From: an uncultured Mycoplasmatota bacterium
GTDB lineage: Bacteria > Bacillota_I > Bacilli_A > RF39 > UBA660
DNA: 64,000 bases
Direction: 5' to 3'
Assembly (NCBI GenBank): GCA_946407055.1
Contig: CAMJMP010000001.1
Coordinates: forward strand, 6,847-70,846
Shown: piece after piece, positions 20,227 through 60,800 of the stretch
Position numbering within the stretch: the stretch's first letter is position 1
Layout of the letters: each line of letters begins with the position of its first letter
Position numbers and translations under genes: made by a program
The notes under the pieces: model-generated
Told to the model about the DNA's origin: nothing
The model's input: the letters and a program-made list of their open reading frames with translations, nothing else
Database searches by the model: none

Positions 20227-20638
20227 AAAGTATATTCATTTTGGATACTTATATTTAAAATATAGAGGATTCAAAAAGAATAAACAAAGAATGTCACGAT
20301 GTGAAGCTATGATTAAATCGTTTCTTTCACATAGTGACGTTCTGTTTAAATCTCAATATCATATAAAACTCCCACGTGGTATTAGAAAAACTAACAATGC
20401 TTATATAGATTTTATGGTTTTTAAAGATAATAAGAGAATTGCAATTGAATATAATGGTGAACAACATTATAAATTCTCTAATTATTTTCATAAAACATAT
20501 GACAAGTATTTAGAACAGCGTAAACGTGATATTGCTGTTATGGATTGGTGTAATAAACGTAATATTACGTTTTTAGAAATACCTTATACTTGGACAGATG
20601 ACGAAATTATTTCTAAAATTAAAGAAGTCATTGAATGA
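20201..20638 (+). CDS. DUF559/Vsr-like PD-(D/E)xK endonuclease-domain protein
   Basis: 'IDFMVF...IAIEYNGEQHY' matches the DUF559 core (IAIExDG..H). Confidence 0.45.
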   Translation: MMKGLKRIKKYIHFGYLYLKYRGFKKNKQRMSRCEAMIKSFLSHSDVLFKSQYHIKLPRGIRKTNNAYIDFMVFKDNKRIAIEYNGEQHYKFSNYFHKTYDKYLEQRKRDIAVMDWCNKRNITFLEIPYTWTDDEIISKIKEVIE

Positions 20639-21819
20639 ATACACTTATTACTAAAGACGCTAAAGGTAAAATTAGAGTTGCTGAATTTGAAAAAACCCTA
20701 TTGGATGATGGAAGTTATTTAATTACAAGAGTAACATATCAATATGGAGGAAAACGAACTCAGCAACCAGACATTATAATTTCTGAAGGAAAAGCTAAGA
20801 GAACTGTTAGTGAACAGGCTGAACTTAAATTTAATTCTTTAATTAAAGAAAAACTTGATAAAGGATATAAACCAATTGATAATCCTATTGATACTTATAC
20901 TTCTGAAGAATTAAATAGTATAGTAGGAGAAATTGTAACTGACTCTAACGGTTTTGCTAAACATATGTTAGCTAAACAAGCTGATAAAGTTTCCGATAGA
21001 ACAATTAATAAACCTGAATTTTGGTATGCTAGTCGTAAAATAGATGGTGTACGTTGTTCATTCTATTGGAAAGACGGAGAAATTCATACAGCATCTCGTG
21101 GAGGTGGTCATTATGATTATTCTACTTATCAATTAAGAACTAATCCAGAATTTATTGAGTTCTTTAAAAATAATCCAAATATTATACTTGATGGAGAACT
21201 TTACAAACATGGAAAATCTTTACAACAAATTTCGGGAGCTGCACGAATGGAGAAAACTGCTGATGGTTGCGACTGGCTCGAATATTACATTTATGATGTC
21301 ATGGAACCAAAACCTTTCTCCGAGCGACTTCAAACACTCAATAGAATCAGCCTCGAACTCAATTTGGGATTTGATCCAAACAGGGTCTGGTCCGATAACG
21401 ATTTACGCGTACAAATGGTTCCGCAAGAAAAGGTTTCTGGCAAAGAGAATATTATCGCGCTCCATGATAAATATGTTGCAGAAGGTTGGGAAGGATGTGT
21501 TGTTCGAGATCCTAAAGGATTATATAAGAATGGTGGACGTGGATCTGAAATGATTAAGTTCAAAATGTATCAAGATGCAGAGTTTGAAATCACAGGTATA
21601 TCTGAAGGACTTAGAGATGAAGATATGTGTTTTACATTAAAAACTGCTGATGGAATTGAATTTAAAGCTAAGCCAATGGGTTCTCGTGAACTTAAAGACC
21701 AATATCGTAAAGACCTCGATGAACTTATAGGTAAAATGGCTACTGTTAAATTCTTCTATTATAGTGATGATGGAACACCATTACAACCTGTATTAAAAGC
21801 AATTAGAGACTATGAGTAA
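20635..21819 (+). CDS. ATP-dependent DNA ligase
   Basis: Motif I 'SRKIDGVR' with the adenylated lysine, motif III 'ILDGELY', motif IV 'EGCVVRDP' and motif V 'IKFK'. Confidence 0.8.
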   Translation: MNTLITKDAKGKIRVAEFEKTLLDDGSYLITRVTYQYGGKRTQQPDIIISEGKAKRTVSEQAELKFNSLIKEKLDKGYKPIDNPIDTYTSEELNSIVGEIVTDSNGFAKHMLAKQADKVSDRTINKPEFWYASRKIDGVRCSFYWKDGEIHTASRGGGHYDYSTYQLRTNPEFIEFFKNNPNIILDGELYKHGKSLQQISGAARMEKTADGCDWLEYYIYDVMEPKPFSERLQTLNRISLELNLGFDPNRVWSDNDLRVQMVPQEKVSGKENIIALHDKYVAEGWEGCVVRDPKGLYKNGGRGSEMIKFKMYQDAEFEITGISEGLRDEDMCFTLKTADGIEFKAKPMGSRELKDQYRKDLDELIGKMATVKFFYYSDDGTPLQPVLKAIRDYE

Positions 21820-32224: not shown

Positions 32225-32737
32225 ATGGATATTGCAAATAAAAACGTACTATTTTTCGACCTTGATGGAACAATAATAAATACTATATCTGGAAAGACAT
32301 TTCCAGCTGGTGTTTGGGATATGGAAATTGATCTTAGAGTATTAAGTACATTAGACAAACTTAAACCAGAATATATATTTATTGTATCAAATCAAGGAGG
32401 AATCGAAAAAGGATTTGTAAATCGAAAATCTTTTGCTGCTAAATTTGAATATGTAAAGCAAGCAATTTTTGATTATTTAGGTGATACTAATATAATCGTA
32501 GATGGTATGTATTGTACCAATGATGATAAAGCTAATGAATACAGAAAACCTAATATAGCAATGCTTGAAACATTACTTAGAAAATATAGCATTTTAAATA
32601 CTAAAGAAACAATGCTAATGGTAGGTGATGCTTCGGGTAAACCTGGGGATTTTTCAGATTCTGATAAGAAGACTGCCAAAAATTTCGGTATAGATTATCT
32701 CGATGTAGAAGATTTTATTTCTTTATTTAATAATTAA
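32225..32737 (+). CDS. HAD-IIIA family phosphatase (polynucleotide 3'-phosphatase / GmhB-like)
   Basis: 'VLFFDLDGTIINT' motif I, 'VSNQGGIEKGF' motif II (compare 'TNQSGIGRG') and 'MVGDASGK' motif III/IV. Confidence 0.55.
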   Translation: MDIANKNVLFFDLDGTIINTISGKTFPAGVWDMEIDLRVLSTLDKLKPEYIFIVSNQGGIEKGFVNRKSFAAKFEYVKQAIFDYLGDTNIIVDGMYCTNDDKANEYRKPNIAMLETLLRKYSILNTKETMLMVGDASGKPGDFSDSDKKTAKNFGIDYLDVEDFISLFNN

Positions 32738-33190: not shown

Positions 33191-33425
33191 TATCATAAAA
33201 ATAATACATAGATTATTGTATTGTTTAATATTACCTGTAGGTTTCTTTTTATTAGTTCTTTCACATATTCTATATTATTGTATAATCATATTTGTTCCAA
33301 TTATTGTTTATATAATTAAAGGTGATTTTAATATAGATTGTATACATGATACAGAAGATGAAGACCATATAATTAATAAAATATTTACTAAACTTTATAA
33401 TTTTATTTACCCTAATTATGACTGA
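33174..33425 (+). CDS. Small membrane protein
   Basis: Two hydrophobic helices. Confidence 0.3.
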   Translation: MKILFNIIKIIHRLLYCLILPVGFFLLVLSHILYYCIIIFVPIIVYIIKGDFNIDCIHDTEDEDHIINKIFTKLYNFIYPNYD

Positions 33426-33705
33426 AACAAATTATTACAAAAAGCAAAACACTGTAACAGAGGAAGACGTAAAGGCAAATATGCAGGATGTATATTGCAC
33501 AACATTAAAGCCATTTGATAAGCCTGTTACTTTCGTAGAAGTACGAATGAAGAATGGATTTACAGTTAGAGAATCAACAACTTGTGTTGATCCAAATAAT
33601 TATAATGAAGAGATTGGTAAAGAAATTTGTTTGAAGAGAATCGAAGATAAGATTTGGTTACTTCTTGGATACGCTTTACAGGAAAAACTTTATCAAAATA
33701 TGTAA
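33418..33705 (+). CDS. Hypothetical protein
   Basis: 95-aa ORF. Confidence 0.35.
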   Translation: MTETNYYKKQNTVTEEDVKANMQDVYCTTLKPFDKPVTFVEVRMKNGFTVRESTTCVDPNNYNEEIGKEICLKRIEDKIWLLLGYALQEKLYQNM

Positions 33706-36846: not shown

Positions 36847-37179
36847 ATGGGAGAAAAGAAATTATATCAAGTATTTAGAATTGACATATGTTTCACATCA
36901 TATGCAATTGATTATGTATTTGTTGGAGGCGAGTCTGCAGAGGATATAAGAAATCATTTTAAAGACGTATTCTCAGACGAAAAGATTGAAGTTTGTGAAT
37001 ATACTAAAGACGAATATCCTGATAATGAAATAGGAGATATTGTATATGAACCACAATATACAGATGATGAAATTGAAGAAATTTTTAGTTCTTCACAATT
37101 TCCTCGTATTGCTCCAGTAAAGGATCTTTATACTACAACACCTTATTGTATTTTAGACTCTATTGCTTATTACGAATAA
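36847..37179 (+). CDS. Hypothetical acidic protein
   Basis: 110-aa ORF. Confidence 0.35.
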   Translation: MGEKKLYQVFRIDICFTSYAIDYVFVGGESAEDIRNHFKDVFSDEKIEVCEYTKDEYPDNEIGDIVYEPQYTDDEIEEIFSSSQFPRIAPVKDLYTTTPYCILDSIAYYE

Positions 37180-37181
37180 AT

Positions 37182-37928
37182 ATGGCATACTTTTATGAAT
37201 CTCATGAACATACTGCCAAAATGGAAGAGTTGTTCAGTAAAGAAATTAAAAATTGTATTAATAATACAAGTGTATATCGTGTTATGTCGGATTTTAATCC
37301 GACTAACATAGATATTACAGTAGAAGCTTTAACAACATCTGATGCAATTACTAAATACAAAGATTCAAAAAGACTTTGTTGTTTAAATTTTGCTTCTTTC
37401 CGACATCCTGGAGGTAGTTTTGGTTATAAAGAAGTACATCTTGCACAAGAAGAATGGATTTGTAAAGATTCATTCCTTTACAACATATTAAAGGAATTTA
37501 AAAACGAATATGTTAAAAATAGTTTTTGTAATAATTATGATTTATACGAAAACTTTGCATTATATTCTCCAGACGTTGTTTTTGTAGACACAGAATACAA
37601 TCCAATTGCTAAGTGTGATGTTCTTACTTGTGCTGCACCTAACGCTAAGGTTGCTCGTAAAAACTATAATGTAGATACTAAAGATATTGAACACGCAATG
37701 CGTCAACGTATTGATTTTGTTCTATCAACAGCAAAAGCACAAGGAGTTAAGACTTTCATTCTTGGAGCTTTTGGTTGTGGAGTATTTGAAAATGATCCTA
37801 CTTTTGTATCACAGACTTTTAAACATTTGTTAGATACCAAGGATTACGGTTTTGAAAAAATTATTTTCGCTATTCCAGGTGGTCCTAATCTTAAAGCTTT
37901 TCAAAAAACATTTTATACAAAATATTAA
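37182..37928 (+). CDS. Macrodomain-fold PARG-like (DUF2263/TIGR02452-like) ADP-ribose-processing protein
   Basis: 'HPGGSFGYKEVHLAQEE' matches the bacterial PARG signature GGG-x6-8-QEE, and the 'ILGAFGCGVFENDP' diphosphate-binding loop is present; start set at the ATG at 37182. Confidence 0.55.
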   Translation: MAYFYESHEHTAKMEELFSKEIKNCINNTSVYRVMSDFNPTNIDITVEALTTSDAITKYKDSKRLCCLNFASFRHPGGSFGYKEVHLAQEEWICKDSFLYNILKEFKNEYVKNSFCNNYDLYENFALYSPDVVFVDTEYNPIAKCDVLTCAAPNAKVARKNYNVDTKDIEHAMRQRIDFVLSTAKAQGVKTFILGAFGCGVFENDPTFVSQTFKHLLDTKDYGFEKIIFAIPGGPNLKAFQKTFYTKY

Positions 37929-38636: not shown

Positions 38637-38969
38637 ATGATTGATTTTGAAACTCTTGGATATAAAAATGTAACAAAAGATAATCCAATTCGTTTTTCAG
38701 AATGTCTTGGTGAATTTTTTGAAAGTGTTTATCCTTATGATAAAAGATATTATAGAAAAGATGGATGCATAGAAATAGAATTAAAAGTAGGAAATCATTA
38801 TGATTTGTATTTTATTTCTGGCATTTGTTATTATCCTAAAGGATGGCAAAAATTTGAAATTATTAATCCAGAAAAACATATTATTGAATATCTTAATAAA
38901 ACTCTTGATACAATAAAACATAAAATAGCAAATAATTTAGAACATTATGGATTACGAACAGAGATATAA
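38637..38969 (+). CDS. Hypothetical protein
   Basis: 110-aa ORF. Confidence 0.35.
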   Translation: MIDFETLGYKNVTKDNPIRFSECLGEFFESVYPYDKRYYRKDGCIEIELKVGNHYDLYFISGICYYPKGWQKFEIINPEKHIIEYLNKTLDTIKHKIANNLEHYGLRTEI

Positions 38970-39732
38970 AGAGGCTTTAGATGAGGCTAAAGCAATTCAT
39001 AAAGCTATAAAACAAGACTTAAAGCCAGTTATAGAACAAATCTTTCCTGAACTTAAAGAGTCAGATGATGAGAGGATAAGGAAAGCAATAATTTGTGGAA
39101 TGAATGCTTTAAAAAAGGGCAATAAAATATACTTTGCTGACATCTATATTGATGATATTCTTGCTTGGCTTGAAAAGCAAGGTGAGCAGAAGTCTGCCAA
39201 TAAGGTTGAGCCAAAGTTCAAGGAGGGTGATTGGGTTGTGTTTAATGGTCTCACCCTTTATATAAATGAAGTTGTAAAAGGGTATTATAGAACAATATCT
39301 AAAAGTGGTACACCTAATAGTTATGATTGGAATATTGATAATGCAGCAAGACTTTGGACAATTAAAGATGCAAAAGATGGTGATGTGCTTTTTCATTCAG
39401 ATTCTGCTTCCAATGGAATTTTTATATTTAAAGAATTATTAAAATATGAATTTGGTGAAAAAGTAATATGTTATTGTGATTACGATTCTGAAGACCATTT
39501 TTGTTTAGGTGAACATCATACTTGTTGCTGGGCAGATGCTAAAATTCTTCATCCAGCCACTAAAGAACAGCGTGAAACTCTCTTTGAAAAAATGAAATTA
39601 GAGGGTTACAGATGGGATGAAGATGAAAAGAAAGTAATAAGATTTGAAAGATTTGTTAGAAGAGAAGAAAGTGATTTTGCTTTTAAAGAAGATGAAAATG
39701 GAGTCATAAAATTTGTTCACGAGAAAAATTAA
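38947..39732 (+). CDS. Member 1 of a three-gene paralog family ('IFPELKE..DE.IRK / WLEKQG / KPKFK.GDW / ATKEQR..LF')
   Basis: Shares four collinear motif blocks with the genes at 41992 and 42919. Confidence 0.45.
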   Translation: MDYEQRYKEALDEAKAIHKAIKQDLKPVIEQIFPELKESDDERIRKAIICGMNALKKGNKIYFADIYIDDILAWLEKQGEQKSANKVEPKFKEGDWVVFNGLTLYINEVVKGYYRTISKSGTPNSYDWNIDNAARLWTIKDAKDGDVLFHSDSASNGIFIFKELLKYEFGEKVICYCDYDSEDHFCLGEHHTCCWADAKILHPATKEQRETLFEKMKLEGYRWDEDEKKVIRFERFVRREESDFAFKEDENGVIKFVHEKN

Positions 39733-42918: not shown

Positions 42919-43833
42919 ATGAGTGAACTTACTATAGAGCAAAAAGCTAAACTTTATGATGAAGTTGTTGAAAGAGCTAAGAAATGGTATAATGCACCAA
43001 ATGTAGATAAAATACCTACTTTTGGTAACAAGATTATTGAAGACATATTCCCTGAACTCAAAGAGCCAGAGGATGAACAAATAAGGAAAGAACTTATTGA
43101 TTATCTGAAAGAACGTAAGAGTGGTGAGAGTTATGGTCAGTATGTCCTAAGATATGACCGTTGGATTAATTGGATTGAAAAGCAAGGACAATCGAAGAAA
43201 ATTTCTATTTGGAAACATTGGAAAAATGGTATTGCTGGAAACGGAGACGGTAAACTTATCTTTTTAATAAAAAGTGGTCCTACATATAGTTTAAGTTCAT
43301 GTCTTAGCTTTGAATGTGATTATATAGAACTTTCGGAATTGGATAGCCTTATGCTTGAAAAGCAAGATAATGCTAATGAAGAATATTGGAGAGGTTACAG
43401 AGAGGGTAAGCAAGAAGTTCTTGATAAATATTCTGAACTTGAAAAACAAATTGTACAAAATATTAATATACCTTGGCATGATGTAAACGAAGAACCAGAA
43501 GAACATCGTGAACTTTTTTGTGAATGGAAAGGTTATGCTGATAGTATATGGCACGATGTTGCTTTTTATCATCCAAGTAATAAAACATTTTGGAATGGAG
43601 AGGATCAAATAGAAAATGTTGTTAAATGGGCTTATATAGATGAAATGCTCGAAGAACAACCTCAATCACAGATTAAACCAAAATTTAAAGCTGGTGATAC
43701 TATTCAATGTGTTTCCGATGAAACAGACAAACGTACAATAGCTAGCTCTATATGTACAGGTATATGTGAGACTTGCACATTAAATCCCTGTCCTAATTGG
43801 GAAGATATAAACTGTGCAGCCGCAGGTAGATGA
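42919..43833 (+). CDS. Member 3 of the three-gene paralog family
   Basis: 'IFPELKEPEDEQIRK', 'WIEKQGQSKK' and 'KPKFKAGDT'; the C-terminus has diverged. Confidence 0.45.
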   Translation: MSELTIEQKAKLYDEVVERAKKWYNAPNVDKIPTFGNKIIEDIFPELKEPEDEQIRKELIDYLKERKSGESYGQYVLRYDRWINWIEKQGQSKKISIWKHWKNGIAGNGDGKLIFLIKSGPTYSLSSCLSFECDYIELSELDSLMLEKQDNANEEYWRGYREGKQEVLDKYSELEKQIVQNINIPWHDVNEEPEEHRELFCEWKGYADSIWHDVAFYHPSNKTFWNGEDQIENVVKWAYIDEMLEEQPQSQIKPKFKAGDTIQCVSDETDKRTIASSICTGICETCTLNPCPNWEDINCAAAGR

Positions 43834-45520: not shown

Positions 45521-45916
45521 ATGAATAAAGTATTTTTAGGAGGTACTTGTAATGAAAGTACTTGGAGAAATGAACTAATTCCATTGTTAAAAATTGATTA
45601 TTTTAATCCTGTTGTAGAAGATTGGACACCAGAATGTCAAGCAGAAGAGGAATATCAAAAGAATGAAGAATGTAATTATCATCTTTATGTTATTACTCCG
45701 AAAATGACAGGAGTATTTTCTATTGCAGAAGTAATAGAGTCTGCTATTACAAGAAATGATAAAGCTATATTTTGTATTATTCTTAAAGATGGAGACCTTG
45801 AATTTACTAAAGAACAAATTAAGTCACTAAATGCTGTTGGTAATATGGTTAAGAAGTATAACGGCATTTGGTGTCAATCTTTAGAAGAAATAGCAAACTA
45901 TTTAAATAATATCTAA
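45521..45916 (+). CDS. Nucleoside 2-deoxyribosyltransferase-like (Rossmann-like) protein
   Basis: N-terminal 'KVFLGGTCNESTWR..LIPLL' resembles the NDT/DNPH1-family nucleotide-binding loop. Confidence 0.35.
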   Translation: MNKVFLGGTCNESTWRNELIPLLKIDYFNPVVEDWTPECQAEEEYQKNEECNYHLYVITPKMTGVFSIAEVIESAITRNDKAIFCIILKDGDLEFTKEQIKSLNAVGNMVKKYNGIWCQSLEEIANYLNNI

Positions 45917-45918
45917 TT

Positions 45919-46275
45919 ATGAGAATTTATACTTTACCAAAACAAGCTAAAAGACTTATAAAAGCAGGAATTGATGAAAATACTGCTGATATGAGATTTA
46001 ATATGTGGGATGTAGCCTATGTTAGATATAATGAACCAATAGATGAATATCATACAGCTTGTTGGAGTCTTATGGGATTACTTAATATTTTGCATGACTA
46101 CACTTTGCAAACCACTACAAATGGAAAAGTATTTGTAGTTTGTGATAATGAGAAGCCTATAATTTCAGGTATCTACAAGAATCCTGTTGATGCTTGTGTA
46201 GATGCAATAATTAAACGTCAAAAAATTCAAAATGAAAGCGTACACAGACATAGAACAGAGTCAAAAACTCGCTGA
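45919..46275 (+). CDS. Hypothetical protein
   Basis: 118-aa ORF. Confidence 0.35.
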   Translation: MRIYTLPKQAKRLIKAGIDENTADMRFNMWDVAYVRYNEPIDEYHTACWSLMGLLNILHDYTLQTTTNGKVFVVCDNEKPIISGIYKNPVDACVDAIIKRQKIQNESVHRHRTESKTR

Positions 46276-46564
46276 AATACTACCAAAAGAAACTGCTGAT
46301 TTCCATTTTAAATATTATTCAGTTCTTGAAGGTTGGTGTGATATTCCTCATTATGGAACAGTATCACATATTAAAGACCTTCCTTGTTGGAGTTTAGCAG
46401 CACTGATTGAAGCTTTACCAAAAATATATGAGTTAAAACCACTAATAGATTTAGAAGGAAATTCTATTATGTATAGTGGTCTTTATATTGATGTATCAGC
46501 AGATAACCTTATTGATTCTTGTGTAGAAATGATTGTTAAATTACATGAACTTAAAGTGCTATAA
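46232..46564 (+). CDS. Hypothetical protein
   Basis: 110-aa ORF overlapping the upstream gene. Confidence 0.3.
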   Translation: MKAYTDIEQSQKLAEILPKETADFHFKYYSVLEGWCDIPHYGTVSHIKDLPCWSLAALIEALPKIYELKPLIDLEGNSIMYSGLYIDVSADNLIDSCVEMIVKLHELKVL

Positions 46565-46718: not shown

Positions 46719-48092
46719 ATGGATCCAATAGTAATACAAGGAAAATATACTAAAGCAGAAATATACGCAAAAACTATAGAAGATGGTGTATATTCTCAAA
46801 TATATGATATAATCAATTGTCCAGCTTTCAAAGATAAAAAAGTAGTCCTTATGCCAGATGTTCATGTTGGAGCATCTGGTCCTTGTGGACTATGTGCTGA
46901 AATTGGTGACTGGATTTGTCCAGAACACGTTGGTGTTGATATAGGTTGTACTGTATCAATGATGGTTCTTAATAAAAAGATACCTGTTGAAAAATATGCT
47001 GAAATAGAGCATAAAATTAAAAAAGAAATCCCAATGGGTACTAATATTAGAGATATTTCTATTTTTAAAGCAAATAGAATACTTTCTAATTATTTACAAG
47101 AAAAGGATTTCTATAAATTTTTATCAACAAATTTCAATATATATCGTCAGTATTGGCCTGAAATGCTTAATGATTTGCCAACAACTGTAACAGAAGAGTG
47201 GATTTCATCACAACTTAAACGTCTTGGTATGGATGAAGGTGTGTTTTATAAATCTCTCGGAACTATAGGCGGTGGTAATCATTTCATTGAATATGATGAA
47301 TCTGACGATACTGAATATTCTTCTGCTATAACTCTTCATTTTGGTTCAAGAAACTTTGGAGTTAAGATTTGTAAGTATTGGACTGCAAAAGCAGGAAAAG
47401 GTGTTGATAAATCAAAACTAAAAGAAATTACTAAAAACTTCAAAGAAGAGTATAAGAAAACACATTCTGATATGAAGGACTTTCAATCAGCTTTATCAGA
47501 GGTTATAGAACAAGAAAAAGCTAAACTTATTCCTGGTTATTTAACAGGAGAAAATATGAAAGGCTATCTAATAGATATGTGTTTCGGACAACTTTATGCT
47601 TTATATAATCATAGAGTTGTACAAAATATCATAAGTGGAATTTTATATAAATATGATATTAAAGTAAAGGAAATTGTACATACATCGCATAATTTTATTG
47701 ATTTGGAAGATCATATTCTTAGAAAGTCTGCAATTAGTGCAAAATTCAGAGAACCTATGATTGTTCCATTTAATATGAGAGATGGTGTTGCAATATGTAT
47801 TGGAGTTGGAAACGATAATTGGTTAAATTCTTGTGCTCATGGAGCTGGACGTAAAATGTCTCGATCTAAAGCAAAAGAAACATTATCAATGGAAGAGTTT
47901 AAGAATACTATGTCAAACATATATTCTACTTCTGTCAGTGAAAATACCATTGATGAATCTCCTATGGCATATAAAGACTCTGAAGAAATACAAGAAATTA
48001 TACAAGATACTTGTGTAATTAAATGTAGATTATTTCCTAAAATTAGTATTAAATGTGATGAGGCTCCTTTAGAACCTTGGAAAAATAAGTAA
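46719..48092 (+). CDS. rtcB: RtcB-family RNA 3'-phosphate/5'-OH ligase
   Basis: 'LMPDVHVGASGPCG' metal-binding N-terminal motif and 'NSCAHGAGRKMSR' RtcB signature; 457 aa. Confidence 0.75.
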   Translation: MDPIVIQGKYTKAEIYAKTIEDGVYSQIYDIINCPAFKDKKVVLMPDVHVGASGPCGLCAEIGDWICPEHVGVDIGCTVSMMVLNKKIPVEKYAEIEHKIKKEIPMGTNIRDISIFKANRILSNYLQEKDFYKFLSTNFNIYRQYWPEMLNDLPTTVTEEWISSQLKRLGMDEGVFYKSLGTIGGGNHFIEYDESDDTEYSSAITLHFGSRNFGVKICKYWTAKAGKGVDKSKLKEITKNFKEEYKKTHSDMKDFQSALSEVIEQEKAKLIPGYLTGENMKGYLIDMCFGQLYALYNHRVVQNIISGILYKYDIKVKEIVHTSHNFIDLEDHILRKSAISAKFREPMIVPFNMRDGVAICIGVGNDNWLNSCAHGAGRKMSRSKAKETLSMEEFKNTMSNIYSTSVSENTIDESPMAYKDSEEIQEIIQDTCVIKCRLFPKISIKCDEAPLEPWKNK

Positions 48093-48096
48093 TGTT

Positions 48097-48507
48097 ATGT
48101 GTTTAACAAGATCAAACATGAATTGTGGTCCTAGATATGCAACTGAGGACATAATTTGTTATAAGATATTATATAAATTTAATAAAGGTATATATTGTTC
48201 TCCTTATATGAAGTTTCCATATAAGTTAAATGAACGTATATCATCTGATTTTAGTTTTGTATCTCTTCCTCCAGTAAAGATGTCTCCACAAAAAGAATAT
48301 AAGTTTATTAGAATTTTAACATATTTTAGACAAGTAAACAAAGGTTTACATTCGTTTAAATATTTAATAGATGCTAATAAATTTAATAATCGTTTTCTGG
48401 GAGGGACAGTTATGAAATGTATAATACCAAAAGGAAGTTGGTATTATGAAGGAAGAGGTGATGAATTAGTTTCTGATAATATAATAATAATTGAAGAAAG
48501 TAAATGA
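48097..48507 (+). CDS. Hypothetical protein
   Basis: 136-aa ORF. Confidence 0.35.
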   Translation: MCLTRSNMNCGPRYATEDIICYKILYKFNKGIYCSPYMKFPYKLNERISSDFSFVSLPPVKMSPQKEYKFIRILTYFRQVNKGLHSFKYLIDANKFNNRFLGGTVMKCIIPKGSWYYEGRGDELVSDNIIIIEESK

Positions 48508-49187
48508 AAATATTAATAACAAGTGATTTACATGGTTTTCTTCCATATATTGATCAACCAGCAGATTTATTATTAATCTGTGGTGATATTGTTCCGTTAT
48601 CTGTTCAATCAAACGGACATAAATCAAAAGTTTGGTTTAGAGATGTATTTAAAAAATGGGCAGAAGAACTTCCTGTAGACAAAGTAATATTTATTGCAGG
48701 AAATCATGATTGGTTTCCTTATTGGGATGAAGGAACAAAATTAAGAAATCTATTTCCACATGATTCTAAAGTTACATATATTCAAGATGAACTTTATGAA
48801 TATAAAGGAATTAAAATATATGGAACTCCTTGGTGTAAACAATTTTATAATTGGGCATTTAATCTTAATGAAGAAGGATTGAAAGAAAAATATTCTCAAA
48901 TTCCAGAAGGTATAGATATATTAATTACGCATGATGCTCCAAATCAAAATGAAGTTGGAATGATTCACGATGGAATATATAAAGGAGAAGATGCAAGTAA
49001 TTATATTCTTACTGATATAATTAAACAGAAAGCTCCAAAATATTGTTTCTGTGGACATATTCATTCTGGAAATCATCTTTCAAAAGAAATAGATGGAATT
49101 ACATTTGCAAATTGTTCTTATGTAAATGAACAATATGTACCTGTTAATGATTTACATATTTTATATATAGATGACAAAGACGCTTAG
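48504..49187 (+). CDS. Calcineurin-like metallophosphoesterase
   Basis: 'ILITSDLHGF', 'GDIVP', 'GNHDW' and 'GHIHSG'. Confidence 0.6.
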   Translation: MKILITSDLHGFLPYIDQPADLLLICGDIVPLSVQSNGHKSKVWFRDVFKKWAEELPVDKVIFIAGNHDWFPYWDEGTKLRNLFPHDSKVTYIQDELYEYKGIKIYGTPWCKQFYNWAFNLNEEGLKEKYSQIPEGIDILITHDAPNQNEVGMIHDGIYKGEDASNYILTDIIKQKAPKYCFCGHIHSGNHLSKEIDGITFANCSYVNEQYVPVNDLHILYIDDKDA

Positions 49188-49787: not shown

Positions 49788-50228
49788 ATGATAAACATTG
49801 ATGAACTTATAAAAGACGCACTGAAGAGTAAAGACGCTGATAAGCTTAAGGCTTACAGAAATTTAAAGGCTAAGATTATGGAGTATAAGACAGCTAAAAA
49901 TGCTAAACCTTATAATAATCAAGCTGAAATTCAAATCATTAAGAAAATGTGCGATTCTCTTAAAGAGTCCGAAAATAACTATAAAAAGGCGAATAGACAG
50001 GACTTATTTGACGAGTGTATAGTTGAAAGGAGAATACTAGAAAATTTCCTCCCAGTGGCTGCTAGTGCCGAAGAAATCGAATTAGCAGTTAGGGAGTCCG
50101 AACATTTTGTAGATGGAAAAATAAATAAAAAATCAATGGGTTTAGTAATTAAAGAAATTAAATCAAAATTTGATTTTGTAGATGGAAAATTAGTATCAGA
50201 AATTGTTAAGAAGTTTATAAATGATTGA
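49788..50228 (+). CDS. GatB/YqeY-domain protein
   Basis: 'LIKDALKSKDADKLKAYRNLKAKI' matches the YqeY N-terminal helix pattern (L..alKaKd..rl...R.l.a.i); 146 aa. Confidence 0.45.
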   Translation: MINIDELIKDALKSKDADKLKAYRNLKAKIMEYKTAKNAKPYNNQAEIQIIKKMCDSLKESENNYKKANRQDLFDECIVERRILENFLPVAASAEEIELAVRESEHFVDGKINKKSMGLVIKEIKSKFDFVDGKLVSEIVKKFIND

Positions 50229-51813: not shown

Positions 51814-51863
51814 AAGGGCGACTTGATTGGATAAACTCCAGTCAGGTCGCCCTTATTTTTTTA
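51814..51863. terminator. Terminator shared by both strands, between the convergent + and minus gene blocks
   Basis: AAGGGCGAC...GTCGCCCTT stem followed by ATTTTTTT; also the 3' end of the minus-strand gene 51861-56660. Confidence 0.6.
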
Positions 51864-54800
51864 CTCTTGTGAATTAACTTTAAGTGTATGGAATACAGGT
51901 TTAAATTGGTTGAATAAGGCATTTGATTTACCAATTGTGGTATAAATGCTTTGATCTCCGAATATTGTTTCGTGAACATTACTATATTGTTTTCCTAAAT
52001 ATTCGAAAGCAAACGGTGTCCAACTAACAGCTGGATCTCCAATAGTATCTATAAAGTTAAAATCTAAGAATGAATTTTTAACAGATTTAATTGCTATATT
52101 ATATGCTGATAATTTAAGTGCATCACCCATATCGGTTTCACTTGAATTTTTCTTTTCATCATCATAAGCTCCTGCTAATGCTGCAGCTATGATGTTTCCA
52201 ACAAGCATAAACATTATTAAATCATAACCTAATTGTTTCATATTAGAACGATATGCAGTACGTAAATTTAAATCTTCATTATACCACATATTTCTCCATC
52301 CATCTGAGATTCCATCGTTTTTCATACTACCTAATAAAGTATATATAGTAGAAACAATTCCTTCTTTCCAATTACCTTCCCAACGAACAACTTGTTCAGT
52401 TGAAGCATTTTCATCTCCTTCTTTTACAGGAGGTTCATTAAATAATATGTTGCCTTCTGCATCTTTTTGATAATAATATTTTATAGTATTACCACTTTCA
52501 TCTTTTTCAGTATAAGGAACCCAACGTCCTTCAAGTTTTACACCACCATGTGCAAGATATTGATTCTTTTTACCAGACCAGAATGTTTTAAACTGCATGA
52601 ATAATGAACCCCAAAGTGTTGATTGAATCATAGATTTCTTTTCATGTGAATAATAACCATAAAGTGTATCACCTAAAGATTTCATTGATTCTGACTCTAA
52701 GTTTGTATAAGCACGAGGTAGTTTTGTTTTCTCTGATAAATCAAATTTAAACTTACTACCATCTGGATTTAAAGCATTTTCTTTTTCAAATTGTCTTGCA
52801 GCTGCAATGTAAAGCATTTTAGCTTTTTCATATTCAGCTGGGTTAGATCTATCATCATCAAAAAATGCTTTATATCTCTTATCTAAAGCACAATCATATT
52901 CAAGTACTCCTTTACTATTAATTTTATGTGCTTCATAAGAACCTTCATTAATCATCTTAGCAACAAAGATTGTCATTCTGTTATAATAGTCTGGACGTGA
53001 TGCAAATTTAAATAAGAAGTTATTGAAATTAAATATACCGTTTTGGTCAGTCTTTATTTTATCAATATATGTATTCATATCCATATCATTGACACCATAA
53101 AGTCTATTAAACTCTTCAATTATTGTTGGTTTATCTGTATAGGCTTGTGGATTAGTTAATTCTCCATAAACTATTTTAGCTGCCTCTAACATATTAGATA
53201 ATGTAAAAGCATCAGTTCCATCTGGCTTACGGATTATTAATGATATGTCTTGCCATATACCTTGTATTGTCTGATAAATTGCTTGAACAGGAGATAAGCC
53301 AAGAACTAATTTAGATGCTGCTTGTTTGATTTTATTTAAAAATGCAACAGCAGGTCTATACTTTTCTGGAATAATTGATTCATTTTTAATCTTATTTTTA
53401 ACATAATTTTCAAGATATTCAAGGTCGTTTTTGAAACCTTCCTCTACATTTTGATTAAAACCTTGAACTGTAAGATTAATCATAGATGCTTTAATCATAG
53501 GGAACACTTCATTTACACGATTTTTCATATCATATGCAAAAGTATGTTTTAAGAAAAGTGTTTCAAGATTAAGTTCATATCTTTTACGAGCTAATATCTT
53601 ATCACGAAGTTTTCCTTCTCCGTAATCAAAATAATTAGTCATTTCAAATAAAGACTCAGAACTTTTATATTCTTGTTGTAATTTATCATCAAAAATTCCT
53701 TCAACAGATGCTTTTGCTCTTCTCCAAGCCTCTTTTGGTAACCAACCTTTAAGTCTATCTTTAAATGCTGCAAGAAGTCCATCTTTTGCAGAAATTACAG
53801 AAGTGTCTCCTTCACAAAGAGGTATTCTATAATATTTAGGATTATTCTTTTCGTATCCTCTATTTTCATTTATTATAGGAAGAACATATTGTAAAAATTC
53901 TTTTTCTTCTGGTAATAAACTATCATCTGTATCAGGATCTTTAAAATACACTTCTCCATCTTTATCAAATTCATACATATTAATGTATAAAGATGCTTGA
54001 TTACCTGTTGTATTTTCTTTAAGCCATCCAAAGTTTTTACGTTTTTTTAATTTTTCTACTAATTCGCGCATTTTAGCAGCAGGTTCTTGTATATCAGCGC
54101 GTACGTTTTGATAAGCTTCTGTTACTAATTTTGTTACAGAATTAAGTGTTTCAGATGATAAGTTACCAGGGTTATCAATCATATTACCACTAAGTCCTTC
54201 TTTATGAACCATTAATGATTGACACCAGTTTTCATGGTCATGTAATTGTTGTTTAAAGTTAATACCTTTAAGTTCAGCAATAGCAAGTAAACATTGATTG
54301 TATAATGCTACATGATCTTTAGATAATTGGTCTTGATTAGTAGTATAATTCTTTAAGATTTTACCTTTATCGGTTGTTTCAAGTTTTTTAATAATATCTT
54401 GAAGTGCTGATATTTTTTCATCTATAGAAGCATTACTTTCTATAGCAGTATCTAAAGCACTTTGACAACTCTTAAAATCTTTAAATTTAGAATATTCTTC
54501 TAACTCAGTTTTAACCATTATATCAGAAAGCATTGTTTTAGCTAATTGAACTTTAGCTGCCATTTTAATTTCTCCAGATTTGAAATTATTTCCTATAGAA
54601 ATTTTGCCTTCTGTACCACTTACTGTTTCTAATTCATTAAATGTATCAAATAGTTCTTTATTAGAACCAGCTTGAATACCTACACCTAATTGAGGATCGG
54701 CAACAAATACGTCACCTACACAAGCATTTTCTTTATCAATTAATTTATTTAACTGATTAATTGCAAGCATTGCTTCAATAAGTTCTATATTACCATATGT

Positions 54801-56660
54801 TGCTTGCATCATCATAGAGTCTGGATTTGATTTAAAATACAAATCTGATTTAAAACAACCACCTAATGTAGTTCTTCCGTTGCCAAAATTAAATTGTCGT
54901 TTTAAGTTTTGTGTAGATATTTTTACAAAATTATATTGTCTATTTCTTGCATTAAATAATGTTATAATACCTAATGCTTCAAGTGGCTTAAATGCTTCGC
55001 CTTCACAAACTTGCCAATTTTTATTAGCGTATCTATCCATTATACGAGCAAACCAGTCTTGACCAATATTATCAGTAAATTCAATACCTTCTACTGTTTC
55101 ATGTTCAATAGCAGTTTTAAGATGTCTTTTAATATTTTGTGTTAATTTATCACGAAATTTAGGTCTATCTTTTAACCACTTTTCTACTTTTTTAACAAGT
55201 TCATCTTCAGCATTAGGAAGTGAAGCATCGACTTTTATTTCTTCTGCATTTTTCTTTCTTGCTCCTTTCGGAACGAATACTAAATTACCTGCTTCATCTG
55301 GTTCAAATGCGTTAGCTTCCTCACATAATTTTTTAGCATCCTCATAACTATACGTTTTAAATTGTGAATAATTCTTGAACCATTTACCCATAGTATCTTG
55401 AACGTTTTGTAAGAAATCATCTGTTGATAATTCAGGTTGATATTGATAATCAATTACTTCATTAAGTTTTGTTTCAATATTATCGTCCAAAATTCTATTA
55501 GTAATATCTTCAAATACATTGTTTCTTAAATTAAATCCTGTAAATGTATATTTATCATCATCTTCATATTGAAAGTCAGCAATTTGTATAGGAACAATTA
55601 AATATTTTGTTTTATTAATATTTATTCCAGCTTTTGCAAGAAGACGTCCATATACAGCTGTTTGATAAGTATATGCTAATTTCTTAGCAGAATTGAAGTG
55701 ATCGTAATCGTGAATAGATGTTTTATAATCTACAATTTGAGGATTTCCTTCTTTGTCAATAACAAGTAAGTCAATGATACCCATTACTGTATCAACACCA
55801 TTTGCAACATTAGTATCTATTTTACCTGTTATTTTAAACTCAGGGTAAAAAAGACAATCATCTCCAAATTTATTAATAACAGCTTGTTCAATTTCTTTAC
55901 ACTTATTAAGTGCTTGTATAAACTGAGCATCTGTCATTAAATCATTAAATTTAATTGAACTTCCGTCTTTTCTTTTATATGTTAATGAAGATAATTTATT
56001 TCTAAATTCATTTAAAACATTAGGATCATTTTTAAGAGCGTCTTTCATGTAAACAATATTATCATCAGTAGATGATTCATGTTTACTAAAATATAATTCA
56101 AGAACAGAGTGAGTAGCATCACCAATTAATGCTTGATGTTCCCATTTGTTTTCTATTAAACCTCTTAAACGATCTTGTTGATGGGTATCTGAAACTTTAG
56201 GCATATTATTAACATCCCAACCTTCAACTTGTGAGAATAATTCTTTTTCAGCATCATTAAATTCACCTTTTGCCCAATCACCAAATCTTCCTTTAGTTCT
56301 ATCGTTTGTTCCCCAATAATTATCAGGTATAAATTCAGGGAAAAGAAGTTCATCATCTTCAGTTTTAAATCCAGATAAGAATCTATTTACACCAATATAA
56401 GGTGCTCGGAAATTATAAGAGTCTCTTTCGTCTCCAATGAATCTATTATTACGAGCATAATCCCATTCAGCTTCTAATTTCTCAGATTTTTCAGATTCTT
56501 TTTGTAATATATCTAAAACAACTGCTTGATGTGTATTAATCTGGAATACTATATCACCAAGAGATTTTCTTAAATAATTCTTTGCTAATAAAAAATCATC
56601 TAATTCAATTTCAGAATTAAATTGATGTCCGTCTAATAAATATACACAATTCATGAACAA
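51861..56660 (-). CDS. Giant protein (1599 aa) with an embedded RecB-family PD-(D/E)xK nuclease motif
   Basis: 'MGIIDLLVID...QIVDYKTS...YQTAVY' (hhhD / DYKT / QxxxY) at about aa 290-345, which is about 55625-55780; the rest is unassigned. Confidence 0.5.
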   Translation of the reverse strand: MFMNCVYLLDGHQFNSEIELDDFLLAKNYLRKSLGDIVFQINTHQAVVLDILQKESEKSEKLEAEWDYARNNRFIGDERDSYNFRAPYIGVNRFLSGFKTEDDELLFPEFIPDNYWGTNDRTKGRFGDWAKGEFNDAEKELFSQVEGWDVNNMPKVSDTHQQDRLRGLIENKWEHQALIGDATHSVLELYFSKHESSTDDNIVYMKDALKNDPNVLNEFRNKLSSLTYKRKDGSSIKFNDLMTDAQFIQALNKCKEIEQAVINKFGDDCLFYPEFKITGKIDTNVANGVDTVMGIIDLLVIDKEGNPQIVDYKTSIHDYDHFNSAKKLAYTYQTAVYGRLLAKAGININKTKYLIVPIQIADFQYEDDDKYTFTGFNLRNNVFEDITNRILDDNIETKLNEVIDYQYQPELSTDDFLQNVQDTMGKWFKNYSQFKTYSYEDAKKLCEEANAFEPDEAGNLVFVPKGARKKNAEEIKVDASLPNAEDELVKKVEKWLKDRPKFRDKLTQNIKRHLKTAIEHETVEGIEFTDNIGQDWFARIMDRYANKNWQVCEGEAFKPLEALGIITLFNARNRQYNFVKISTQNLKRQFNFGNGRTTLGGCFKSDLYFKSNPDSMMMQATYGNIELIEAMLAINQLNKLIDKENACVGDVFVADPQLGVGIQAGSNKELFDTFNELETVSGTEGKISIGNNFKSGEIKMAAKVQLAKTMLSDIMVKTELEEYSKFKDFKSCQSALDTAIESNASIDEKISALQDIIKKLETTDKGKILKNYTTNQDQLSKDHVALYNQCLLAIAELKGINFKQQLHDHENWCQSLMVHKEGLSGNMIDNPGNLSSETLNSVTKLVTEAYQNVRADIQEPAAKMRELVEKLKKRKNFGWLKENTTGNQASLYINMYEFDKDGEVYFKDPDTDDSLLPEEKEFLQYVLPIINENRGYEKNNPKYYRIPLCEGDTSVISAKDGLLAAFKDRLKGWLPKEAWRRAKASVEGIFDDKLQQEYKSSESLFEMTNYFDYGEGKLRDKILARKRYELNLETLFLKHTFAYDMKNRVNEVFPMIKASMINLTVQGFNQNVEEGFKNDLEYLENYVKNKIKNESIIPEKYRPAVAFLNKIKQAASKLVLGLSPVQAIYQTIQGIWQDISLIIRKPDGTDAFTLSNMLEAAKIVYGELTNPQAYTDKPTIIEEFNRLYGVNDMDMNTYIDKIKTDQNGIFNFNNFLFKFASRPDYYNRMTIFVAKMINEGSYEAHKINSKGVLEYDCALDKRYKAFFDDDRSNPAEYEKAKMLYIAAARQFEKENALNPDGSKFKFDLSEKTKLPRAYTNLESESMKSLGDTLYGYYSHEKKSMIQSTLWGSLFMQFKTFWSGKKNQYLAHGGVKLEGRWVPYTEKDESGNTIKYYYQKDAEGNILFNEPPVKEGDENASTEQVVRWEGNWKEGIVSTIYTLLGSMKNDGISDGWRNMWYNEDLNLRTAYRSNMKQLGYDLIMFMLVGNIIAAALAGAYDDEKKNSSETDMGDALKLSAYNIAIKSVKNSFLDFNFIDTIGDPAVSWTPFAFEYLGKQYSNVHETIFGDQSIYTTIGKSNALFNQFKPVFHTLKVNSQE

Positions 56661-57834: not shown

Positions 57835-60800
57835 CTATGGATATTTTGTTAATAAATCATGTTTTATTCCAATTTCTTCAAGAGACTTAACATCCCAATC
57901 AATAGGATTAAATCTAACTTCTCCAACAACATGATCTTCAATACGTATTGTTTCCTTTCTAGTTTCGTTTTCAACAGATAAAAGCCTATCACTAGGAACC
58001 ATGTAATAATTACTTACATCTATATTTCTAATGATTAAATTTACTTTTTTAGCATATCCATTTATAGCACCCATAGATTTTTGTATTCTATACCAAGCTG
58101 TTGCAGGTGGTATGTTTTCACTTGCTGCTAAAGCTTCAATATCTTCTCTATAAAATCTACTATTTAATTTTTCCCAAAGTTCAGTGTGAAGTGTTTCAGG
58201 ATCTTGTGTATAAATGTATCTACCTGTTGCTGCATAAGGATTTTGAACTTTAAGTATATATGGGAAAAGTTCAAGTTGATCAAGTGGAACTTTTTCATCA
58301 AAAGATGACTCAAATTTATGAAAATCTGATAATTTATATTGAGGATTATCATGTAGATTTTCAAAAATTGGCATTAATGATTGTTGTCCTTGCTTACCGT
58401 AATGAGCAATTAATCCATAATAATAGAATAAATCAACTAATGGAATATTTTGTCCATTAAGATTATATGAATATCCTTGAAGTTTATTAAATTCTGATTT
58501 ATAACTATTAAATACACCTCTTTCTTCATCAGAAGAAGGTAACATATTAATAGGAAGTGTGTAGTTAATAATAGGATTGTGAGTAACTGTGTTTGTTAAT
58601 ATTGAAACTGTTAACGCTTTAATAAATCTGTTATCAGAAATATTTTTAGTAGTTCCATTTTCTCCAAGTGAACCTTTTTGTAAATTAGGTATAATTATAT
58701 TTTCCATAATATACTTAAATGAAGCATCACCAGAAGCAGTTCCTAATTTAATTTCACATTCTTCATCTATTAATTTTCCATTAGCTATACTTTTTATACC
58801 TTTTGGTATTTTAATAGATGGAAGATTTCTTAACATCCATTTACGTCTTACATAATCAGAATAATAATTAGCAATTCCTTTGAATAAATCTTGTTTATCT
58901 TTACTTGTATTTCCAACTAAACCTTCTTCTAATAAATATGTTCCTATTTCAACAGTGGTTTTAAACTTATTACTTGTTTCTAAACTTGATTTATATGCTA
59001 CAACTAAAGATTGTAAATAACCAGAAAAATGAGGAACTGTGAATACTGCATCTAAAACATTAACAGATGCTTTTACGTTATCATAGTTTTCAATACATTG
59101 ATTTCTGTATTCTTCATCAGTATAGAATCGAACAAGATCGAAAGCCTCATATCCATTTTCTGCCTTTTTTGGAACATCTTTATTTTCTAATAGACTTAAT
59201 CTAACAGCTATTCTATGATTTGCATCTATTATAGCTTGATTTCTATTTCTAATTACATTTTCTAAATCAATTACTTTTGAAATTATTTCTTCTGGTTTTG
59301 TAGGTAAACCTTTATTAAGACCAAATATTTGTCCTAATATTTTTAATTCCTCAGCACCTTCAGAAAGTGTTTTTAATGAATTATAAGTCCATTCATTTTC
59401 TTTAACTATATTTACTTGTCTTATATACTCTTCTAATTCATCAATAAGTTGATTATATTTTTGTTTATCTTCAACGGCTACTTCTTTTGTAGTATTTCCG
59501 TATTTATATAATCCTTTTAATGATTCGAGTATTTCAATTTTATCATATAGATTTATTGATTTATCCCAAGCAAATTTAGCAAATAAATAATAAGGAGACA
59601 AATTTTGTACTCCATATTTCAATCCTAAAGATTTAGATAAGTATTCAATATAATTTGGAACTACTTTGTTGTTTACAATTTTAGTTTCATCATATTTACT
59701 TAGCGTATCACGAGGACCTGTTTCAAGATAATCGAAAACTTTTGATATAGAGAATATACCTTTTTCTCCTGTGAATACGTTACTCTTTGTAAGATCTGTT
59801 AATAATAAACCAACATCAGAAGTCATGATTTTAGATACTGATTCTATATCCATTCCAATAGAAACACCAAAAACATACATTCCTAATGTCTTAATGCCTG
59901 CGTTTAATTTACTTAACTGTAACTCTTTAGCATTATCAGTAGCAAGTGAAAGTAAAGCAGACAAATCTAGAGCCGCATCAGAATCATCATAAGTTTCAGA
60001 TAATGTATCATATAATTCAGATCCTATCTTAGGATTTATATTAGCGAAATATTTATAAATTCTAGCTCCTTTTTCACCAGGAACATAGATTTTTATTTCT
60101 TTATTTCTTCCTAATGCAATTCTATCCTTTTGTTTTCTAATTGCTTCACGTTCTTCATCGGTTCCTATTACAGGTCTATTAACAACATAATTGAAATATT
60201 CTGTTAATCCGAAGAAAGTTTTCATACCAACGGCACAGATACTAATACCATCTTTACCAACTTGGTTATCTTCGATAGATTCTGCTTTATTAAATACATT
60301 ACCAGGTGTACGTTCATTAATAAGTTTACCAACTTTAAAGTTCTTAGTAATATTTTTAACAGGACCCGTCATAGCATCTACAGAAGATTGTGCTTGAGTA
60401 AGATTTGCAGCTGTATCAATAATCTTATACATCTTATACATAGAATAATTTTTAGCAATAGAAATTAATTTATTATTACTTACATTACTAAGATAATTAT
60501 TATGTTCATTAATTATTGATGTAAATTCTTCTGTAAAATTACACTTCTTCATTCTTAAAGCCTTAGATAATCTTTCATTTAATTTATCATTTAATTGATA
60601 AAGTCCATTTTCATTAACTTCTTTAATAAATTCAGATAATAAAGTTAAATTAGGATTTTGTTTTAAGTAAATATGTGAAGTGTTTTTTCTTGTTCTAAAA
60701 TTAAATAAATCAGAATATTTATTAATTAAATTGCCAAAGTAGTTTAGAGCATCAGAATTAAATTCTGCTTTTTCATCATCTGTTGCGTCTTCTGATATAT

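Follow-up and report, generated by a model that had tools for sequence, protein, structure and literature searches.

A stand-alone RtcB-family RNA ligase gene in a phage genome and its possible role in the repair of translation RNAs

Introduction

Which RNA does a phage mend when it carries an RNA ligase of its own? The question is raised by rtcB, a gene for an RtcB-family 3′-phosphate/5′-hydroxyl RNA ligase, in a 64-kb stretch of DNA (positions 6,847 to 70,846 of contig CAMJMP010000001.1, assembly GCA_946407055.1) that was analysed as a whole and is hereafter called the window. RtcB in phages is already known, and the idea that phage RtcBs re-ligate cleaved tRNAs against RNase effectors was put forward in a 2021 survey of jumbo phages (PMC7824862). 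A preliminary description of the window proposed the same kind of function, namely tRNA repair against anticodon nucleases. In this study, we examined the gene, its predicted protein, its surroundings and its relatives, and weighed this proposal against other possible substrates.

Full-length RtcB and its intact active site

The window gene is a full-length RtcB in a phage genome.

46719..48092, plus strand: rtcB, ATG-to-stop open reading frame (ORF) of 457 amino acids (aa), RtcB-family 3′-phosphate/5′-hydroxyl RNA ligase

The preliminary description had recognized a full-length RtcB here by the motifs MPDVHVG (residues 45-51) and SCAHGAGR (residues 371-378), and the ORF, both motifs, Pfam, PHROG and BLASTP all agree with this. 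The protein matched Pfam PF01139 (RtcB) with 187 bits (E=9e-55; gathering score 27) over profile positions 5-425 of 426, and PHROG 1075, annotated as 'tRNA splicing ligase', with 325 bits (E=2e-96), while BLASTP aligned it over nearly its full length with E. coli K-12 RtcB (taken from NC_000913.3) at 28% identity (E=9e-38). The start codon is consistent with the homologues, which open with MIELxGKYT. A recent host origin of the gene was rejected, as the best match among 185,579 species-representative genomes was only 41% identical and the GC content of rtcB (0.300) is near that of the genome (0.286).

To assess the active site, the residues were aligned with those of 16 metagenomic relatives and E. 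coli RtcB, and through a profile/HMMER alignment with the P. horikoshii and T. thermophilus chains. The roles of the metal ligands, the His nucleophile and the GTP contacts (PMC9745838) and of the contacts to the 5′-OH strand, including the equivalents of R211 and N187 (PMC8051266), were taken from the literature. The results showed that all residues whose roles have been defined by experiment are kept in the window RtcB and are invariant across its clade. The motifs are located as follows, with roles assigned by alignment.

46938..46949, plus strand: DIGC motif (D74-I-G-C77); D74, Mn2 ligand; C77, metal-bridging Cys (E. coli D75/C78, P. horikoshii D95/C98)
47277..47291, plus strand: GNHFIE motif (N187-H188-F-I-E191; P. 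horikoshii N202/H203/E206)
47337..47351, plus strand: H207-F-G-S-R211; H207, Mn1 ligand (E. coli H185); R211, binder of the 5′-OH strand (E. coli R189, P. horikoshii R238)
47382..47534, plus strand: charged helical insert, residues 222-272, between the Mn1 ligands H207 and H324
47688..47693, plus strand: H324-N325; H324, Mn1 ligand (E. coli H281, P. horikoshii H329); N325, contact to the GTP gamma-phosphate (P. horikoshii N330)
47838..47852, plus strand: H374-G-A-G-R378; H374, predicted guanylylated nucleophile (E. coli H337, P. horikoshii H404)

In the GNHFIE motif, N187 aligns with the residue that contacts the 5′-OH and GTP, H188 with a Mn2 ligand and E191 with the guanine-specific Glu, and near the C-terminus K445 aligns with the conserved guanine-specific Lys. 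The binuclear metal site of the P. horikoshii enzyme (C98, D95, H203, H234 and H329) is matched by C77, D74, H188, H207 and H324. The insert holds 12 K/R and 9 D/E in 51 aa, and helices were modelled around it at residues 212-226, 231-248 and 255-268. The AlphaFold2 model, built on an alignment, reached a pLDDT of 84.4 and a pTM of 0.85. In a Foldseek search of the PDB with this model, the top 16 matches were all RtcB (E from 1e-12 to 2e-20, TM 0.54-0.65), the best being 8odp, 4dwq and 1uc2 (TM 0.60-0.65), and the next match had E=0.02. Catalytic competence of the window RtcB is well supported by these alignments and the predicted fold.

Phage context and occurrence of rtcB

The placement of the gene in a phage, as the preliminary description had it, was borne out by the helicase, primase, NrdD, ThyX, dUTPase, sigma-factor, homing endonuclease and N4 gp49-family genes in the window. 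The sequence available is 64 kb of the phage genome, with a GC content of about 29% and densely packed, same-strand genes. A long plus-strand block (1-51.8 kb) is followed by converging minus-strand genes, the sign of the GC skew flips at about 52 kb, where the gene direction switches, and the block holding rtcB is closed by a terminator.

51814..51854, plus strand: strong hairpin terminator with an 18-bp stem followed by a T-run, at the end of the plus-strand early/middle block

The block contains replication genes (helicases, a primase, a DnaB-like protein/helicase, a RecE-like exonuclease and a DNA-polymerase fragment) and nucleotide-metabolism genes (NrdD and its activase, dUTPase and ThyX), along with an ATP-dependent ligase, two homing endonucleases, a crAss001_48-family domain and two metallophosphoesterases. 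The primase is 54-57% identical to those of unannotated human-gut phages of about 120 kb and about 35% identical to those of crAss-like, Bacteroides and Flavobacterium phages. No near-identical known phage emerged, since a megablast of the 44-52 kb region against GenBank phages gave zero matches. From the sequence we infer an uncatalogued large low-GC gut phage, whose host probably belongs to Bacteroidota. No Shine-Dalgarno sequence was found upstream of rtcB, and a promoter scan of the window returned 58 candidates, which is not above the 66 expected from shuffled sequence.

Phage RtcB homologues, aligned at near full length by tblastn, were present in 642 of 50,697 GenBank phage records, including those of mycobacteriophages, of Bacillus, Listeria, Clostridioides, Caulobacter and Halorubrum phages, and of a 735-kb uncultured phage, where they are usually labelled 'tRNA splicing ligase'. 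At least 586 stretches in IMG/VR carry a homologue as well. The closest catalogued phage RtcBs, from Bacteroides LoVEphage and Phocaeicola phage PV4-TP1, are at most 40% identical to that of the window. Among the metagenomic relatives there is one match at 98%, followed by a large clade at 59-69% identity whose phage-like contigs measure 100-435 kb and are densely filled with small ORFs that lack Pfam matches.

Search for RNA-repair partners

Pfam and PHROG scans of essentially all window ORFs of at least 89 aa revealed no RtcA, RtcR or archease, and no polynucleotide kinase, Rnl-type RNA ligase, CCA-adding enzyme or release-factor domain; tRNA and tmRNA genes were likewise absent from the 64 kb. 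For PrfH, a profile search of all stop-to-stop ORFs in the window gave a best E value of 0.14, a negative that covers these 64 kb, and a distant PrfH elsewhere in the phage genome is possible. RtcB is the only recognisable RNA-repair gene of the window and stands alone.

A wider view was obtained by clustering all against all the ORFs within 4 kb of RtcB at 167 loci, which include 80 IMG/VR loci and 80 loci of GTDB genomes gathered with an RtcB profile and which fall into 102 RtcB groups at 80% identity. No neighbour family occurred in more than 9 of the 102 groups, which rules out a fixed operon partner of RtcB and fits a self-sufficient, single-gene function. The only window ORFs to enter any neighbour cluster were those of a metallophosphoesterase family and of one small-protein family.

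Proposed role of the phage RtcB

We put at about one half the probability that rtcB encodes an active, stand-alone phage ligase that re-seals nuclease-cut RNAs of the translation apparatus during infection, with the tRNA anticodon loop as the default substrate. By homology to the E. coli and P. horikoshii enzymes, two Mn2+ ions would be held by D74, C77, H188, H207 and H324, and H374 would attack GTP to form RtcB-His-GMP. A 2′,3′-cyclic phosphate end would be hydrolysed to a 3′-phosphate, GMP would be moved onto this phosphate to yield RNA-3′pp5′G, and the 5′-OH end, placed by N187 and R211, would attack to restore the phosphodiester. This chemistry, in which a 2′,3′-cyclic phosphate or 3′-phosphate is joined to a 5′-OH, fits the ends that metal-independent RNases produce; anticodon nucleases, named in the preliminary description, are among them. 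Lying among replication and nucleotide-metabolism genes, rtcB would presumably be expressed with the early/middle genes. The ligase could then re-seal translation-apparatus RNAs cut by metal-independent ribonucleases, candidates being abortive-infection or toxin nucleases and the toxins of competitors, and phage protein synthesis would go on. A precedent for tRNA as the substrate is E. coli RtcB1, which mends colicin-cut tRNAs (PMC9304027).

Several points weigh against a tRNA substrate. No Rfam family reached its gathering score in the 64-kb window, which offers nothing tRNA-specific. Each of the four NCBIfam models of RtcB subfamilies gave the window RtcB a score far under its cutoff (102 bits against 407 in one case), so that no substrate can be transferred from a characterised orthologue. 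The literature yielded genome announcements and comparative genomics and no experimental work on any phage RtcB. Furthermore, the closest cellular relatives of the window RtcB, and one member of its own clade, appear from their gene neighbourhoods to be coupled to PrfH. What stands of the preliminary proposal is therefore a competent-looking RtcB in a phage; its specific assignment to anticodon-nuclease damage is plausible but unproven and has a serious rival in ribosome repair.

Ribosome repair and the link to PrfH-coupled RtcBs

According to this rival, which we consider possible but somewhat unlikely, RtcB would rejoin 16S rRNA cut at the decoding centre, or rRNA cut at another site, by colicin-E3-like, CdiA-like or other rRNases, either acting in the absence of PrfH or relying on one that the host or another part of the phage genome provides. 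In E. coli, RtcB2, the partner of PrfH, mends 16S rRNA of 30S subunits cut by colicin E3 and not tRNA (PMC9304027). RtcB2 is also active by itself, as it mends cut 30S and 70S particles alone and protects when overexpressed (PMC13166195), which counts in favour of this rival.

The genomic evidence for this rival comes from the nearest relatives. The best matches of the window RtcB among the species-representative genomes came from Bacteroidales (loci L090-L093, L095, L096 and L113; 37-41% identity). A GGQ-containing PrfH-like ORF of about 200 aa lies 3-72 nt from RtcB in six of these seven loci and 1.8 kb away in L095. A phage-like member of the window clade, L009, whose RtcB is 59% identical to that of the window and groups with it at a bootstrap of 99-100%, shows the gene order metallophosphoesterase - x - RtcB - HAD - PrfH. 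When tested against the PrfH equivalog model TIGR03072 (cutoff 166.65), the proteins of L009, L090 and L091, the three tested, scored 183-218 bits, so that by sequence their PrfH is bona fide; with E. coli PrfH, these proteins share 34-41% identity. That L009 itself is phage DNA is suggested by its small acidic ORFs and by an ORF of 109 aa that the jumbo-phage contigs L010 and L012 also carry.

Neighbour-joining (NJ) trees based on simple distances joined the window clade to L095 and five Bacteroidales PrfH-coupled RtcBs, with a bootstrap of 76% from one alignment and of 57% from a second, made with L-INS-i and including E. coli RtcB2, whereas the alternative pairing with the LoVEphage type received 0%. 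This support is weak to moderate. A further point in favour is a gene downstream of rtcB.

48504..49187, plus strand: calcineurin-like metallophosphoesterase, 227 aa (Pfam Metallophos 49 bits; PHROG 1649)

Relatives of this gene were also found near RtcB in L009, L154, L093 and L113. Of 8 PrfH-RtcB loci, 3 have a metallophosphoesterase of the window type nearby, compared with 1 of 158 other loci (Fisher p=3e-4), an enrichment in which L093 and L113 are near-duplicates and have an opposite-strand gene between the metallophosphoesterase and RtcB. The gene is a possible but unproven accessory of RtcB.

Other comparisons point the other way. Besides the lack of a PrfH-like ORF in the window, the RtcB reached only 78.4 bits against TIGR03073, the model of the PrfH-coupled RtcB2, which has a cutoff of 271.8; the Bacteroidales and L009 PrfH-coupled RtcBs, however, also fail this model (66-83 bits), which makes the model narrower than the biology. 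Membership in the E. coli RtcB2 group itself was rejected, since the window RtcB is 26% identical to E. coli RtcB2 (intact copy H47 of strain RM10466, the rtcB2 at locus H46 being a pseudogene), joined it in 0 of 100 bootstraps and left it as the outgroup. PrfH-less RtcBs of the phage (LoVEphage) type and the Firmicutes type also have the insert at residues 222-272, but E. coli RtcB1 and RtcB2 and the Bacteroidales PrfH-coupled RtcBs lack it, so this indel conflicts with the grouping in the trees. A segment at about residues 125-170 (FYKFL...WPEML...QLKRL), on the other hand, unites all Bacteroidota-associated RtcB groups. PrfH was present in only 8 of the 167 RtcB loci and is essentially absent from GenBank phages, where two full-length matches were found, both on fragments of about 5 kb.

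Related loci showed that the two genes do meet in phages. A PrfH-profile scan of IMG/VR found PrfH 0-15 nt from RtcB on contigs of 160-292 kb with a GC content of 0.28-0.36 (L179/L181, L180/L192, L184/L185 and L203) and adjoining RtcB in L175, L178 and L187. 'Viral' calls in that database can include host flanks, and viral hallmarks were checked in L179 and L203: a T4-type large terminase lies 116 nt upstream in L179, and a tubulin/PhuZ-like gene lies nearby in L203. Judged by these sequences, genuine PrfH-RtcB modules are present on jumbo-phage contigs, which adds to the case for ribosome repair. Their RtcBs belong to several lineages, being 33-55% identical to the Firmicutes-type L098 and 72% to L090, with L183 at 57% to E. 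coli RtcB2. PrfH is thus tied to several unrelated RtcB lineages, a linkage that is evolutionarily labile and a weak predictor of the substrate of any RtcB. In three further IMG/VR loci (L173, L174 and L177; GC 0.26-0.33) a PrfH 42-52% identical to that of L009 lies in a phage-like context, and no RtcB was found beside it in the fetched flank, tblastn included, so PrfH and RtcB need not be linked in phages. PrfH has been stated to be found only in bacteria (PMC9304027), and no mention of a phage PrfH was found in the literature searched.

Taken together, the link of the window RtcB to the PrfH-coupled lineage appears only moderate. The more specific version of this rival, in which a phage-borne ribosome-repair RtcB descended from the Bacteroidota PrfH-coupled lineage acts, perhaps with the adjoining metallophosphoesterase and a PrfH of the host or phage, is in our estimate doubtful.

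Other substrates and the possibility of a passenger gene

An RtcB acting on something other than tRNA or rRNA appears improbable. It might re-seal mRNAs of the host or the phage cut by HEPN-type or mRNA-interferase toxins, process or circularise phage RNA, or cap or seal DNA 3′-phosphates in the course of DNA repair. Eight RtcB sequence clusters are recognized, with substrates known for three only (PMC9304027), and in vitro RtcB enzymes accept 5′-OH DNA for ligation in addition to RNA, making no base-specific contacts (PMC8051266), both of which leave room for such substrates. The gene also lies among DNA-metabolism genes, and the window encodes a 3′-phosphatase and an ATP-dependent ligase.

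32225..32737, plus strand: PNK3P/HAD polynucleotide 3′-phosphatase (82 bits), 14 kb upstream of rtcB
20635..21819, plus strand: ATP-dependent ligase of DNA type (DNA_ligase_A_M 71 bits, against 35 bits for RNA_ligase)

Against these substrates, no structured RNA, intron or tRNA-like element occurs in the window, RtcB has no conserved partner that would indicate DNA repair, and no RtcB is known to have a biological role on DNA. The preliminary description had mentioned the 3′-phosphatase alongside the ligase. Its existence was confirmed, but it would not help RtcB, as it would destroy the 3′-phosphate that RtcB uses, lies 14 kb off and has no kinase partner. Cleaning of 3′ ends for the DNA-type ligase fits it better. 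A T4-like Pnkp arrangement was rejected because the adjoining ORF (32744-33190) is of the crAss001_48 family and no kinase. On its other side, the phosphatase gene is flanked by an ORF of the formate/nitrite transporter family (198 aa, 31625-32221, plus strand; Form_Nir_trans 60 bits), a membrane channel gene in a phage.

That rtcB is an inactive or decaying passenger without a role in infection is very improbable, since nothing specific speaks for it beyond its being a single accessory gene without conserved neighbours, whereas the ORF is full length, the catalytic residues are invariant across the clade at 59-69% identity and in the relative at 98%, the model is confident and the GC content is close to that of the genome.

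Comparison with known systems

Among the phage RtcBs of PHROG 1075 (for example those of LoVEphage, PV4-TP1, C. difficile phiCD211, Bacillus Bcp1-like phages and mycobacteriophages), which belong to the same family as that of the window, the gene is likewise a stand-alone early/middle gene without RtcA, archease or PrfH, and the LoVEphage type has the same helical insert separating its Mn1 ligands. The window RtcB differs in being at most 40% identical to the catalogued ones, in forming a separate clade seen only in metagenomes and in having non-homologous downstream genes.

E. coli RtcB1, encoded in the RtcR-regulated rtcBA operon and active in the repair of cleaved tRNAs, has a two-Mn site, His nucleophile, 5′-OH strand contacts and guanine contacts identical to those of the window RtcB, which has no RtcA or RtcR beside it and carries extra segments at about 110-160 and 222-272. 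The E. coli RtcB2-PrfH module contains a ligase of the same family, and the nearest cellular relatives of the window RtcB and L009 are PrfH-coupled too, but the window has no PrfH and its RtcB is distant from RtcB2 in identity and in the trees. The chromosomal RtcB-PrfH pairs of Bacteroidales are the closest cellular homologues and, in the NJ trees, the sister groups with the best support; they share the segment at about 125-170 and, in L093 and L113, a nearby metallophosphoesterase, and they differ in lacking the insert, in their length of about 400 aa, in a GC content of 0.42-0.55 and in having PrfH close by.

The T4 enzymes Pnkp and Rnl1, which counter PrrC, follow the same proposed logic of a phage undoing the damage that nucleases inflict on the translation apparatus. 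The window has a Pnkp-like HAD 3′-phosphatase domain, while a kinase and an Rnl-type ligase were not found in it, and the chemistry is unrelated: T4 combines kinase/phosphatase healing with an ATP ligase, whereas RtcB joins 3′-phosphate and 5′-OH directly with GTP. Archaeal and metazoan RtcBs (P. horikoshii and human RTCB) have the same fold and active site at about 16% identity, and no archease domain was detected among the window ORFs. Because the tRNA introns of bacteria and phages splice themselves, the window RtcB would have no role in tRNA-intron splicing.

Neighbouring genes of rtcB

The immediate surroundings of rtcB are tightly packed. The gene begins 2 nt past the previous one and is followed by a small ORF that is probably co-transcribed with it and that leads into the metallophosphoesterase gene described above.

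48097..48507, plus strand: 136-aa ORF of PHROG 13450, a family without assigned function; starts 4 nt past the stop codon of rtcB; 4-nt overlap with the next gene
49788..50228, plus strand: YqeY-domain protein, 146 aa (Pfam YqeY 85 bits), 1.7 kb downstream of rtcB

The 136-aa ORF was considered as a cofactor or archease analogue and rejected, as it has no Pfam match and no homologue in any of the 167 RtcB loci; it is also unrelated to the 135-aa gene behind rtcB in Phocaeicola phage PV4-TP1 (E=10). The YqeY gene, which the preliminary description had tentatively tied to tRNA, is real, but its association with RtcB is weak: the two are loosely co-located, and the pairing recurs once among the related loci, in L001, at a distance of 8 kb.

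In L001 and L006, the two closest long relatives, a protein of about 190-200 aa with a weak DSPc (dual-specificity-phosphatase) match lies behind RtcB, directly in L006 (3913-4479) and after one gene in L001 (11879-12493), and the window has its metallophosphoesterase at a similar position. Different phosphoesterase families thus recur beside RtcBs of the window clade.

Upstream, at 0.8 kb from rtcB, lies a gene for a nucleoside 2-deoxyribosyltransferase-like protein (45521-45916, plus strand; 45 bits). Two small paralogous families without assigned function, encoded at 45919-46275 and 46232-46564 and at 38947-39732 and 42919-43833 (all plus strand), also precede rtcB, and both also occur on L001 and L002/L003, distantly related phage contigs that carry RtcB.

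Other features of the window

Several further genes were observed in the window. At 23774-24697 (plus strand) the phage encodes a sigma-70 family factor of full length, with regions 1.2, 2, 3 and 4, and at 33418-33705 (plus strand) an N4 gp49/Sf6 gp66-family protein (83 bits). Homing endonucleases (an HNH type, one with a weak NUMOD-like match and a LAGLIDADG type) are located at 3983-4849 (plus strand), 7535-8071 (plus strand) and 61000-61704 (minus strand), among the replication genes and the large minus-strand genes. The 329-aa DNA polymerase ORF at 24930-25919 (plus strand) aligns with no more than positions 56-357 of its PHROG profile, which has 663 positions, and the match of the helicase ORF at 315-1280 (plus strand) is confined to an internal part of its profile. 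These partial matches suggest split or interrupted genes, although that of the helicase may instead reflect the window edge or the choice of start codon.

A microbial-type poly(ADP-ribose) glycohydrolase, PARG, is encoded at 37146-37928 (plus strand; 72 bits), and an isochorismatase/nicotinamidase-like gene adjoins a NUDIX gene (17294-17893 and 17893-18477, plus strand). Together they form a candidate set for NAD+/ADP-ribose counter-defence or salvage. On the minus strand, three very large genes at 51861-56660 (1599 aa), 57835-60843 (1002 aa) and 62042-63997 (651 aa) yielded hardly any database matches; the 1599-aa protein carries a PD-(D/E)XK nuclease domain, and the 1002-aa protein has one match, at 24% identity, in an unannotated 117-kb gut phage.

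Implications for phage RNA repair

The window RtcB adds a divergent, phage-restricted clade to the RtcBs already known from phages, and no new principle. Its interest would rise if the ribosome rather than tRNA turned out to be its target, as the only characterised PrfH-linked RtcB mends ribosomes and not tRNAs. In that case, ribosome repair would be a phage counter-defence strategy beside tRNA repair, and the PrfH-RtcB modules of jumbo phages would represent the full version of the same strategy. The locus thus raises the question whether phages mend ribosomes as well as, or in place of, tRNAs during infection.

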